DNA of 62,313 nt, filler included, from Hausera hauseri (taxonomy: Eukaryota), in assembly GCA_046269625.1 (NCBI GenBank). It is 12 parts of 12 records of this genome, joined end to end, with 100 filler letters (N's around TTAATTAATTAA, not from the genome) between each part and the next. Parts side by side here need not be neighbours in the genome. Positions count along the whole stretch, not along the records: positions 57,637 to 62,313 come from JBJURY010479243.1; 11 more parts are not named here. One strand, written 5' to 3'. The position numbers were made by a program, and so were the translations under genes. Position 1 is the stretch's first letter. Every line of letters starts with the position of its first letter. Of the stretch, positions 57,537 to 62,313 are shown one piece after another. A model generated the notes under the pieces. The model did not search any database and was not told the DNA's origin. It saw only the letters and a list, made by a program, of their open reading frames with translations.

Positions 57537-58388
57537 NNNNNNNNNNNNNNNNNNNNNNNNNNNNNNNNNNNNNNNNNNNNTTAATTAATTAANNNNNNNN
57601 NNNNNNNNNNNNNNNNNNNNNNNNNNNNNNNNNNNNAGGGGCCGCTCCTGCCGCTCCAGGGGGATGAGAGTGAGAGACTGCATCCAGCTGGGGCTGCCCT
57701 GGGGGTCTCAGCAGCCCCTCTCCAGCCGTTTTGCAGCGGGAGAGGATTATTGCCAAAAAGGTCTTTAAATCAGCCAGGGGCGGGCTCTGCTGTTTCAGGC
57801 TGATACCTCTATTTGAGAGCAAGGGATCCATGCAGCTGGAGCTGCCCTGAGCACATCAGCAGGCTTTCTGCAGCCGTTTTAAAGCTGCAAGTTTTTGGGT
57901 GTTTTTTTGCTAAAAATGCATGGAAATAGAACCAGAGCGGGTTCTGCCACTGCAGGGGGCAGACAGGGAGCCCCCCCAAGCAGCACAGCCGAAAAAAGCA
58001 CTCAAAAAGCTGTTCTGGGGGCTTTAAAACACATTTATAAAAACACCTGTCAGCCACAGCAAAGGCGGACCACACCATCGGCGGATGAGAGTCATCTTAA
58101 TGGCGAGAGCATCCTTCCGGGTGCACCTGCCGCTCCAGCATCTCTTCCTGCAGCAGCGGGAAAGAGAATCTTGCTCTGCGGCCTTGTTAGGCTCCTAGCT
58201 CCGGCTCTAATAGCCTGATGCATGCATGCTTGGTACCGTTGGAAAGCTCTTGAGCTCCCCTACAATCTGATAGGGGTCTGGGGCCCATGAGGCTTCGGCC
58301 GCGGGAGATATGAGCAAAAAACCGGCCGGGCGGGAGTTATTTTGCTGAAAATGGAAATAAACACAACACATAACTTAATTTAACCTTT

Positions 58389-60126
58389 TTATTGATCTGG
58401 CTGTGGCCTGTTGGCCGTCTCAAGCATGTCACGCACATCTCTAGCCTGATCTGCCGTCATGTGTAGGGCGTAGAACCGGTCCGCCGTGGAAGTGTCATGG
58501 CACATGAATCTGGCCAGTTTATGCCGGGTGTCCGGACAGTGGTGGTTCCTGGTATGGGTTGCGACCGCAGTGCGGAAGTCAGTAAATGTGGGGCTGCCAG
58601 ACAGGCCCATTTCAAACCAAGCCACCTGGAGAAACCGTAGCAGCAGCGTGCCGTTAGTCGGGCTCCCGGTTGTGAAGAACCGGTCGTCTTTGGGTTCCAG
58701 CGCCGACCTCAGGTGCATCCACCGCTCGAACCATGCAAATTCATCTCTTGTTAGGTAGATCTGTGCCATCCCGAAGGCACGTCTGGTCTTGTGGTTCTTG
58801 ATCTGCTGGAGGAAACGAGCAGGGTCAGGAAAGGTATTGGTGGAGTAACAGCCATGGTGGAGTAACAGCCATGGTGTGTGGGTGTACTCACGTTGATGAC
58901 GAAGCCGGTAGAGCTGTCCTGAACAGCAGCAGTCCGCTTGGCCTTCTCGACCTCACCCACGGTCATGTTGGCCAGCACGCCGGTTCTGTGGCCGTAGATT
59001 GATGACAAGAAGGCGGCCAAGTAACCGTAGAACCGGTATCTCAGATCCGGATCCTCGCCCTGGTCTTCATCATCATCGTCGTTGTCCTCTTCCCCGTTCT
59101 CCATCAGGTCTGTGGGGGGAAGAGAGCACAGGTGAAGCATAGAGTCAGATGAGTGCAGTGGAGCTCTGCTGCGGATCTCTTACCCAGTAGCTCGGGGATC
59201 TTGCTGCGGGCCTTCTCCCTGCAGGTGGTGAGGTCCTCCACCGTGAGGGCCCGGTCGACCTTGGCCTCCTTCACCCGGATCTGGTGCATGATGACATCCG
59301 AGCCCAGGTCCCGGAGGCAGCTCTTAAGTGCCCTGGCAGCGCCGGTCTGCTGGGCCTTGGTGAGGCGACACCCGGGCGGTGGTGTCTCCCTTAGGTAAAG
59401 CAAGAACTGATGCACGTTTTTCAGGTACATATTTACTGTTGTGATGGCAATATTATCCTCAGTCAGCTGTGTGGGCCACCTCTGTATCTGGTCCACGTTA
59501 TCCAGGAAGAGCCAGGTTCCCAGCTCTCCCTGTCCTTCGGCCATGAACTGAAGAAAGGCCCTTATCCGGTTGGTCTTGGACCGCGTGTTTTCCCTCAGCT
59601 TACGGTTCGGCCGAGCGCCCGTGTGAAACCTGTGGAACCCGTCCAAGAACGAGAGCACCGAGTCCGGCAGAGGTGGACCGGGCCCGTCTCGGCGTCTGAT
59701 CATGTCCCGGGGCTCTCTGCAGCTCCCTGGGCCCGCATCTACTTCATTTTCCCCCTCGGCCGCCGGGTCCGCGGTTGGCCCGCCGGCCGCCTCTTTGAGG
59801 TTCGAGACGACCGGCGCACCGCCTGCGGTCTCCCCGATGGCCCTTATCATTTCAGCAGTCACATTTATCCTCACCCGCTGGAGCTCCGCCGCTCTCTCGG
59901 TCTCCGAAAGCTCCACATGTCCTTGAAGCAGGTGTTTGTCCAGCCGGCCCCGGTTGTAGTCGCATCCCTGGATGTGGCATGGACGTTTACGCACATTGAC
60001 TCTACCGCTGGCCAGGCCGAGAAGAAGCCTCCTCTCCTCCAGATTTTCAACCGCATGAGTACGCTTTAAATGGCTCGACATTGCAGCAAACAGCCGGTGA
60101 CAGAGCGGGCATACATCTTTATCCAT
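58389..60126 (-). CDS. Tyrosine recombinase with two N-terminal C2H2-like zinc fingers; coding exons 60126-59184, 59109-58892, 58802-58389 (524 aa)
   Basis: GT-AG introns join three ORFs in frame (943+218+414 = 1575 nt). CPLC..HLKRTH and CHIQGC..HLLQGH; catalytic GHR, HKT, TDFR, MCHD, RFY. AATAAA overlaps the stop and a GT-rich tract follows. Confidence 0.88.
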
Positions 60127-60310
60127 CTGCCCACAAACACACACACATAATATGGATTGCAATTTAACAAAATATCTCACTTAGAACCACAAAACAAGGA
60201 GCAACTTACCTTCTCACAACACGATGATCAAAATGTTTGTTAGGGCTGGGCCAGAGTCGCACTTATATAGGTCATGTCCGGGGTGTGGCCGGAAATATGA
60301 GCCAATGCAG
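60127..60310 (-). promoter_or_regulatory. Pol II promoter, non-coding first exon and 83-nt 5'UTR intron (60209-60127) of the YR gene
   Basis: TATATAA near 60263-60269, GGGTGTGG (KLF/Sp) box, CCGGAA (ETS) and CCAAT at 60302; donor AAG|gtaagt; acceptor ggcag|ATG. Confidence 0.7.
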
Positions 60311-60488
60311 GCAAAGCCCTAACTCCAGCCCGAGCCATGGGCCGATGCAGGCAGGAGCCTAACTCCAGCCCGAGCCATGGGCCGATGCAGGCAAAGCCCT
60401 AACTCCAGCCCGAGCCATGGGCCGATGCAGGCAAAAAACCTAACTCCAGCCAATGTGATAGGCCAATGCAGGCAGAAACCCTAACCCC
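60301..60488. repeat. 40-bp tandem repeat, about 4.7 copies
   Basis: gcc(a/g)atgcaggcaaagccctaactccagcccgagccatgg at 60301, 60341, 60381, 60421 and 60462. Confidence 0.95.
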
Positions 60489-60726
60489 TAGTAGAACCAA
60501 GTGGTTTTTTACCTGTTTTGGCCAGGTAAATCTACCAGAATTGGCCCTTGTAAAAAAATAAAAATAAATAATAAATAATTGTTTTAGACCCAGGTCTTAA
60601 ATGGGGCCTGAGTCTGAGTCCAGTCCGGATCAGGTGCACCTCAGCCGGGGCTGCATAACCAGTACCTGGGGCCCCCGGGTCTAACTTAGACTCAGAACCA
60701 CTGCTGGGCTTGTGGAACCCCATACC

Positions 60727-61190
60727 GGGTCTCTGGGACCAGTCTCTGCACCCCCCAGGGAGCCGGACCTGCTCCCGGGCCTCTGGGACCAGTCTCTAGA
60801 CCCCCCAGGTCTGGGCTAGACCCAGAACCGCTCCCGGGCCTGTAGAAGCAGTCTCTAGACCCACCAGGTCTGACCTAGACCCAGAACCGCTCCCGGGCCT
60901 CTAGGACACAGTCTCTAGACCCACCAGGTCTGGGCTAGACCCAGAACCACTCCCGAGCCTGTAGAAGCAGTCTCTAGACCCACCAGGTCTGACCTAGACC
61001 CAGAACCACTCCCGAGCCTGTAGAAGCAGTCTCTAGACCCACCAGGTCTGACCTAGACCCAGAACCGCTCCCGGGCCTGTAGGACACAGTCTCTAGACCC
61101 ACCAGGTCTGGGCTAGACCCAGAACCGCTCCCGGGCCTGTAGAAGCAGTCTCTAGACCCACCAGGTCTAGCCTGGACCCAGAACCAGCTG
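60727..61190. repeat. 59/60-bp minisatellite, about 8 copies
   Basis: gtctctagacccaccaggtctg..ctagacccagaacc.ctccc..gcct at 60792, 60851, 60911, 60970, 61029, 61089 and 61148, plus a degenerate first copy. Confidence 0.95.
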
Positions 61191-61794
61191 TTTCTCACAG
61201 CTGGAGCTGCATTAACTGGCTCTGGGCTGGACTCAGAGCCAAATCCCGGTCCGGACCACGGCCCTGCTGGTCCAGGGGAGTCTGGACTAGCCCCCCAGGG
61301 CTGGACCAGGTCCAAAACCCGGTCTGGCTAGCCCTCAGGATCGCGGAGCCGCAACAGACAGGAGCCGCTCCTTTTTTACTTTCTCTCTTTTCCGGCCCGT
61401 TTCGCGATCCAGATTTAAACTTCAAACGCTAATAGCTCCGGCTGTGAGCGGCACATCCGGGCAAGTGAGACAAGCCTGGAAAGCTACGGGCCTCCTCTAC
61501 AAGCTGGAAGTGGTTGGGGGCTCCTGGGGCCTTCCCCCGGGGAGCTACGGACCGAAATCGCCCGCCAAACCGGCCTTCGGCGGGCGATAGGCAGCCGAAA
61601 AGGTCCGGGACCTCCTGCGCGGGCTACGAGCGGCCTAGCCGGGCCTGGGTGGGCTCGTTGGAAAGCTGCGGGCCTACCCTACAATCTGGGAGTGGTTCCG
61701 TGCTCCGGAGGCTTCGACCGCGCGAGATATAAGCGGAAAACCGGCCCGGTGTGGCTCTGGGAGGCGGGGGGCGGGCGGCAGGGGGACCGGGGTG

Positions 61795-62220
61795 GCCTGG
61801 GCCTCTTCAGGGGCCAGAGATAGCAGGATCCTGGGTGTTGAATCCCCCCCCAGGGGCTCAGCACCGACCTTTATAGAGCCGTGCAGCCGGCTGCGGAGGG
61901 GGGCCCGAATTTTGCCCTAAACGGAGGAATTTCGGCACGGGCCTTGGTGGGCCTCCTCAGGGGCCTCAGGGGGCCAGATCCTGTCGGTTGAATCCCCCCC
62001 CAGGGGGCCGGAACATGCTCTCCATCCGAGGTGTCGGGTCCTGCTGGGGGGGGTGTGATTTTGCCCTAAACGGAGGAATTTCGGCTCGGGCCTCGCTGGG
62101 CCTCCTCAGGGGCCAGAGATAGCAGGATCCTGGGTGTTGAATCCCCCCCCAGGGGCTCAGCACCGACTGTCCCACCGCCATGTAGCTGGCTGCAGTGGGG
62201 GGGCCGAATTTTGCCAAAAA
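61795..62220. repeat. About 150-bp degenerate repeat x3
   Basis: gggcctc.tcaggggcc..gatcctg..gttgaatccccccc.agggg recurs at about 61799, 61949 and 62098. ttttgccctaaacggaggaatttcggc occurs twice. Confidence 0.85.
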
Positions 62221-62313
62221 TGAATAAAATTCAGCCAGGGGCCGCTCCTGCCGCTCCAGGGGGATGAGAGTGAGAGACTGCATCCAGCTGGGGCTGCCCT
62301 GGGGGTCTCAGCA

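Follow-up and report, generated by a model that had tools for sequence, protein, structure and literature searches.

The window analysed here, a stretch of 62,313 nucleotides from the Hausera hauseri assembly GCA_046269625.1, consists of 12 contigs with N-linkers, the last of which (JBJURY010479243.1, positions 57637–62313) is present in full and encodes a predicted zinc-finger tyrosine recombinase. The gene is intact and lies in a real head-to-tail repeat, which probably represents an array rather than an episome. The explanation that best accounts for the data, to which we assign a probability of about 0.55, is that the contig stands for one unit into which a head-to-tail array of a Crypton-class DNA transposon in the chromosomes of a bony fish has collapsed, the array having been grown by the recombinase. 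Taken separately, chromosomal tandem or clustered copies are likely; growth driven by the recombinase is a weaker step than the arrangement.

The final 77 nt of the contig are an exact copy of the sequence beginning at 57637, the identity ending at 77 nt, in agreement with the assembler loop proposed in the preliminary description of this DNA; the overlap gives a unit of 4,600 bp. A ~149-bp sub-repeat continues in register over the end-to-start junction, which lies within this sub-repeat and is not an element end. Part of the unit is held by 24 listed sequencing runs, eight of which (X1–X5, X11, X13 and X18) were examined in detail. The overlap copies, the repeats of the non-coding part and the copies of a 26-nt motif are located as follows (strand given where one applies):

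57637–57713: first copy of the 77-nt overlap, shared by the assembler with the contig end; inside the ~149-bp sub-repeat, no element terminus
57637–58370: degenerate sub-repeats of ~148 bp, continued; in each of the eight runs 57945–58330 belongs to the regions of greatest depth
58240–58265, plus strand: copy 1 of the 26-nt motif (TGGAAAGCT-N9-CYCTACAA), lying in a direct repeat of ~107 bp
60760–61189: 59-bp tandem repeat, seven copies, ~90% alike; very deep in X1–X5, skipped by a joint in X13
61477–61502, plus strand: copy 2 of the 26-nt motif, exact match
61659–61684, plus strand: copy 3 of the 26-nt motif, exact match
61797–62236: 149-bp sub-repeats, three copies, continuing over the end-to-start junction
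62237–62313: second copy of the 77-nt overlap, exact match to the contig start

The 26-nt motif gave three exact matches in the unit and none in 100 shuffles, and on this basis is a candidate binding or recombination site of the recombinase. Nine loci found in a motif scan of IMG/VR had no BLAST similarity to the unit and were taken as chance matches. The inverted pairs present in the unit are imperfect and only 16–21 nt long, and there are no terminal inverted repeats.

At least half of the sampled words of the unit were carried by 10 of the 24 listed runs. Contigs crossing from the unit end to its start were found in all eight runs examined, seven of them within 3 nt of the joint in the window and that of X18 displaced; the joint on which the preliminary description depended is therefore real DNA. 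Depths were compared only as ratios within one run. In each of X1–X5, single contigs over 61146–61836 were 3.5–4.8 times and those over the joint 5.6–8.0 times as deep as the gene contigs, and the summed depth over 57945–58330 and the 59-bp array was tens to hundreds of times higher. X11, X13 and X18 contained diverged copies belonging to several subfamilies, which covered all 30 bins of the unit, the deepest modules differing by run. A gene-less joint of X11 (58353 to 57639) had a depth of 2,721 versus 10–66 for the listed gene contigs of the same run, the segment 57639–58353 closing on itself as a gene-less unit of ~730 bp. One shallow contig of X1 joined 58259 to 61679, with the gene cut out between motif copies (~107-bp repeat), one joint of X13 bypassed the 59-bp array, and the gene contigs of X2 and X3 ended at 58331, where the deep repeat starts. 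The preliminary description had left both circle and array open; the uneven depth within runs, the gene-less loops and the neighbouring multi-copy relatives described below favour the tandem array and disfavour a free episome.

X1–X5 are coded as five organisms, yet their gene is essentially identical. The depth of X2–X5 is 0.5–1% of that of X1 with matching ratios among the parts, because of which carry-over is suspected. On the same ratios and depths, the identical copies in many organisms were rejected as evidence of an infectious circle.

Neighbouring copies of relatives are found in fish assemblies. In platyfish, four consecutive gene models (LOC111607919-922), each on a 46,000-bp contig, are 98–100% identical, and a contig of 35.3 Mb carries a further copy. 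Two models of Pseudoliparis, 97% identical, follow each other on a 19.6-Mb contig, and in Nematolebias 99%-identical copies on separate contigs of 47.0 and 57.1 Mb point to dispersal. The adjacent piranha models SRHO_G00269950/60 (34.1-Mb contig) are made up mostly of 6–7 and 12 repeats of one stretch of 83 amino acids (aa), 90–100% alike, which begins at the intron-3 boundary of the query. When 144 family representatives were compared with the profile of the family, eight stepped back in it, two of them passing from the recombinase half into the next finger region, as stitching of gene models over same-strand neighbours would give. A single-copy domesticated gene, which the preliminary description had considered, does not fit the several variant copies per run and the multi-copy fish relatives.

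The unit contains a single gene on the minus strand, in which the segments 60126–59184, 59109–58892 and 58802–58389 join into an open frame of 524 aa. The merging of three separate open reading frame calls through GT-AG introns, reported in the preliminary description, was thus reproduced, and the promoter and polyA signal it mentioned correspond to a TATA-like box and an AATAAA. The features of the gene are:

58388–58393, minus strand: poly(A)-like signal AATAAA, which overlaps with the stop codon
58389–58802, minus strand: last coding exon, aa 388–524, with K392, T461-x-x-R464, H489 and Y498
58803–58891, minus strand: intron 3, GT-AG, 89 nt, phase 0
58892–59109, minus strand: middle coding exon (exon 3), with an acidic insert and the catalytic R356
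59110–59183, minus strand: intron 2, GT-AG, 74 nt, phase 1
59184–60126, minus strand: first coding exon, with two C2H2-like motifs (aa 6–24 and 50–70), a linker and a helical core-binding (SAM-like) domain
60127–60209, minus strand: predicted intron in the 5′-untranslated region (UTR), GT-AG, 83 nt, called from GT/AG alone
60262–60269, minus strand: TATA-like box
60297–60488: 4.7 copies of a tandem 40-bp repeat, situated upstream of the TATA-like box and containing three CCAAT boxes

Four GT-AG combinations are available near the breakpoints of the two coding introns (74 and 89 nt), and two of these give long open frames, of 524 aa and, with an alternative acceptor 3 nt off, 525 aa; the alignment of homologues favours the former and spans both coding joins without additional residues. 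The unspliced gene calls of relatives (~50% identity) lose frame at the matching points, P0001 and P0002 at intron 2 and P0002 at intron 3. Among the 12 indels listed of 52 in the diverged copies, the two coding ones are each of 6 nt, and all ten that are not multiples of three fall in introns or other non-coding DNA. The intron positions are therefore independently supported, by the loss of frame in the calls of relatives and by the non-coding location of all listed non-triplet indels. Three non-triplet indels of relatives lie inside the predicted 5′-UTR intron.

Intron 3 contains a perfect 17-bp duplication (2.3 copies, 58838–58876). The acidic stretch (58954–59128 region) is missing in the named homologues, and the contigs of X11, X13 and X18 skip 59044–59128, so that it is specific to the subfamily of the query. 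For a relative from Xyrauchen texanus (P0040 cluster), RefSeq annotates 13 isoforms at the single locus LOC127644880; as such isoforms are usually based on RNA, this is a hint that the locus is transcribed and alternatively spliced.

The 524-aa protein possesses the recombinase residues R356, K392, R464, H489 and Y498, whose catalytic roles we take from the order of the motifs, and terminates 26 aa past Y498. In 14 homologues, K392 was conserved in all, R464, H489 and Y498 in 13 of the 13 covering them, and R356 in 10 of 12. The fold was predicted through the homologue P0006 (47% identical over 454 columns), which was modelled from a nine-row alignment with a predicted local distance difference test score (pLDDT) of 69. 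Foldseek matched this model to XerA (E 5e-5), Cre and lambda Int, and VIA-align gave a Z of 13.6 against XerH with 293 aligned residues and a root-mean-square deviation of 5.7, in agreement with a tyrosine recombinase superfamily fold comprising core-binding and catalytic domains. The Pfam family Phage_integrase was reached at sub-threshold level only, in 7 of 12 homologues.

All eight Cys/His residues of the two C2H2-like motifs were invariant in the seven aligned sequences, and the pattern of the first finger was found in 33 of the 144 representatives, many of which are fragmentary. The finger region was modelled with a pLDDT of 82; fold searches with it gave nothing significant (best E 2.3, to a C2H2 protein; best Z 4.9). 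In P0003, P0004 and P0005 a Cys pair and a long helix come after the two finger motifs, but the gene call has no recombinase part; there may be longer versions with several exons, or a finger gene of its own. With five catalytic residues, two invariant C2H2-like motifs and a P0006 model resembling XerA and Cre, the designation of the product as a zinc-finger tyrosine recombinase in the preliminary description holds. Of the placement by structure and phylogeny that it suggested, the structural part was reached through the homologue P0006; the tree of 15 recombinase domains was mostly unresolved and left the window protein outside any supported group.

The family profile matched 1,756 clusters at E ≤ 0.001 (354 at 1e-30), so that, at the level of sequence, the element is not an isolated oddity. 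The named members looked up were all bony-fish proteins, in line with the fish-like host proposed earlier, and a functional label was limited to one "core-binding domain". Look-alikes in the Atlas were unnamed clusters of Chordata, Cnidaria and Mollusca; DUF3435 proteins resembled the query less. A sequence search of PDB and a tblastn search of phages and plasmids gave no match, PHROG gave scattered weak matches only, and Rfam nothing near the gathering score; scans of IMG/VR, JGI metagenomes and GTDB for related loci confirmed nothing. Foldseek against viral structures found generic integrases (7–15% identity) and no special viral relative.

The last contig has a guanine–cytosine (GC) content of 58%, with CpG depleted in its non-coding portions (observed/expected 0.45–0.49), and the other 11 contigs, with 33–41% GC, have no sequence in common with it. 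Because of these two differences it probably derives from an organism other than that of its neighbours, most simply from a fish of which a high-copy repeat was carried along. In most of the 11 AT-rich contigs (1–57536) CpG depletion is absent, and by eye some of their frames resemble pieces of a decayed Gypsy-type retrotransposon, of hAT elements and of a Polinton-type polymerase.

The recombinase is the only enzyme encoded in the unit, the open reading frame list and the Pfam scan giving neither a reverse transcriptase (RT) nor a DDE transposase. Cryptons (Goodwin 2003 via PMC3212892; groups A, F, I and S) likewise have a tyrosine recombinase as sole gene and no terminal inverted repeats, and the Crypton-like character advanced in the preliminary description was upheld on both counts. 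For Cryptons a circular intermediate has been proposed, and non-autonomous derivatives outnumber coding copies (PMC3212892). The unit differs in its N-terminal C2H2-like pair, in the Thr standing for the first His and in that terminal direct repeats of 4–6 bp were not located in it; it also differs in its head-to-tail arrays, of which the sections of PMC3212892 consulted give no account. CryptonA, CryptonI and the domesticated DUF3504 genes have a DUF3504-type domain, for which the Pfam scan gave nothing at E ≤ 1 in the window exons or 12 homologues. CryptonF has a C-terminal GCR1_C domain; no Pfam match of this type was obtained in the same set, and only 26 aa of the window protein follow Y498. 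DIRS and Ngaro elements possess gag, RT-RNase H and terminal repeats that are split or inverted, and none of these occurs in the 4.6-kb unit.

Repbase/Dfam families that may be closer are CryptonH and LRS, comprising the zebrafish CryptonH-1_DR (9,383 bp), LRS_DR (9,916 bp) and LRS-3_DR (2,527 bp) and the 13 families CryptonH-1 to -13_HM of 4,062–8,223 bp (PMC9341512 supplements). The likeness, drawn from names, lengths and copy numbers, consists in the size range of 2.5–9.9 kb and the presence in teleosts. Presence in cnidarians would be added if the suffix HM, as we assume, stands for Hydra, the nearest Atlas clusters including Chordata, Cnidaria and Mollusca. LRS_DR was reportedly entered as a large tandem repeat. 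All three of the zebrafish Crypton-H families studied are enriched in H3K9me3, as arrays would be (PMC10942377). That CryptonH/LRS is the likeliest existing home, as judged from such descriptors, has roughly even odds; since Repbase already lists these families the novelty is reduced, and if the family is the same the element is a new member of a catalogued group.

CryptonV, present in Repbase tables (PMC4455052, PMC5753468), also comprises recombinase-encoding DNA transposons of fish, cnidarians and insects, some of which target repeats. In zebrafish the CryptonV families number thousands of copies, and the three that lack the label N measure 18–23 kb; these features, and the microsatellites reported as targets, set it apart by description. 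Starship captains (DUF3435) are eukaryotic tyrosine recombinases too, with Atlas feature scores of 0.90–0.91 and one cluster named C2H2-type; Starships are giant cargo elements of fungi bounded by target duplications (PMC9156397), whereas the unit has neither a DUF3435 Pfam match nor cargo. Tandem multimers are known from the eukaryotic DNA transposon KolobokP, re-integration of circles being among the proposed routes, but it has a DDE transposase, a homing nuclease and long terminal direct repeats, and no tyrosine recombinase (PMC9587614). A literature search that covered sources other than Repbase Reports and most subscription journals gave no account of tandem recombinase-element arrays in fish. 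The array life-style and satellite link of a teleost-wide Crypton-like lineage thus appear to be undescribed in the literature searched.

A mechanism for the growth of the array can be proposed by analogy with the Crypton model, in which excision as a circle and re-insertion have been suggested (PMC3212892), and with an active algal Crypton whose excision is clean and whose insertion site corresponds to its own end (PMC9977147). The enzyme, presumed catalytically active, would excise a unit as a circle, which would then be re-inserted at a matching site in an existing copy; the array would lengthen if the target resembles the element's own junction. Rarer insertions elsewhere could seed new arrays, and gene-less units retaining the site could travel as non-autonomous partners and so become satellite DNA.

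The strongest competing explanation, itself unlikely, is that a target-specific Crypton was inserted into a pre-existing satellite, with satellite on both sides closing the loop and the genes irregularly spaced. It would account for a non-coding part far deeper than the gene, for the position of the joint in the ~149-bp repeat and for the X2 and X3 gene contigs ending at the start of the deep repeat, and some CryptonV families do target microsatellites (PMC8869645). Against it, the diverged copies of X11, X13 and X18 keep the end-to-start joint and cover the whole unit with different modules deepest, and relatives have near-identical consecutive copies.

Somewhat less probable again is a passive macrosatellite, an old Crypton-derived gene homogenised by unequal crossing-over of the host, whose protein would now work in DNA binding or as a host factor and take no part in amplification. 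Concerted evolution yields such near-identical neighbours, Crypton recombinases have been domesticated repeatedly (PMC3212892), one relative has its 13 isoforms at a single locus, and a catalytic His is replaced. However, the domesticated DUF3504 genes are without most catalytic residues (PMC3212892) whereas five are kept here, 99%-identical copies are found on different large contigs, and a single run contains deleted copies next to several subfamilies. A free 4.6-kb episome that maintains itself, comparable in vertebrates to the 2-micron circle of yeast and perhaps transmitted from one fish species to another, would fit the exact loop closure, the identical gene in X1–X5 and the number of runs rich in its sequence, but is very improbable in view of uneven depths in the same ratios in X1–X5 (which carry-over from one library can give and one circle species cannot), the lack of any replication, partition or capsid gene in the unit and the location of relatives in chromosome-scale contigs. 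Transient circles as intermediates are possible.

Several observations weigh against a recombinase-grown chromosomal array. Thr takes the place of the usual first catalytic His throughout the family: it is present in 11 of the 14 homologues (His in none) and in 32 of the 39 representatives, out of 144, that match the pattern (again none with His). Purifying selection on the gene is not clear, because synonymous substitutions in the few rows listed for the diverged copies number 6 of 17, versus 24% expected (3 of 12 in a second case). The dyad symmetry of the 26-nt motif is weak (7–8 of 13 pairs), and neither element ends nor short terminal direct repeats were located in the unit. Contig depth is not copy number, and more than one path can be traced through the deeper non-coding contigs, which leaves the fixed 4.6-kb period unproven. 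X2–X5 may be library carry-over rather than natural sharing, hence not independent, and were counted as one observation; near the joint the window differs from X1–X5 at ~9 of 221 bases, the gene being identical. The tandem order in relatives rests on gene-model numbering, contig sizes and protein sequence, and the piranha relative is a distant one, whose repeat shares no more than ~20% identity with the query at that place and may be a repeated exon or of sub-unit size.

It is conceivable, at rather long odds, that a widespread bony-fish lineage of recombinase transposons lives as self-propagating macrosatellites, its enzyme putting circles back into the element's own arrays and gene-less circles with the same site piling into the major satellite DNAs of the species. 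If this is true, a vertebrate site-specific recombinase would be the engine of satellite birth and turnover. The origin of new satellite DNAs and their movement from one chromosome to another are a general question, for which an enzyme-driven route is testable here, with an intact, compact recombinase gene sitting in repeats whose amplification differs from one related fish to the next. A tyrosine recombinase native to vertebrates, active and equipped with a site of its own, would also count as a candidate tool for genome engineering. In practical terms, a eukaryotic contig that looks "circular" and carries a single recombinase gene can stand for a collapsed array of the host.

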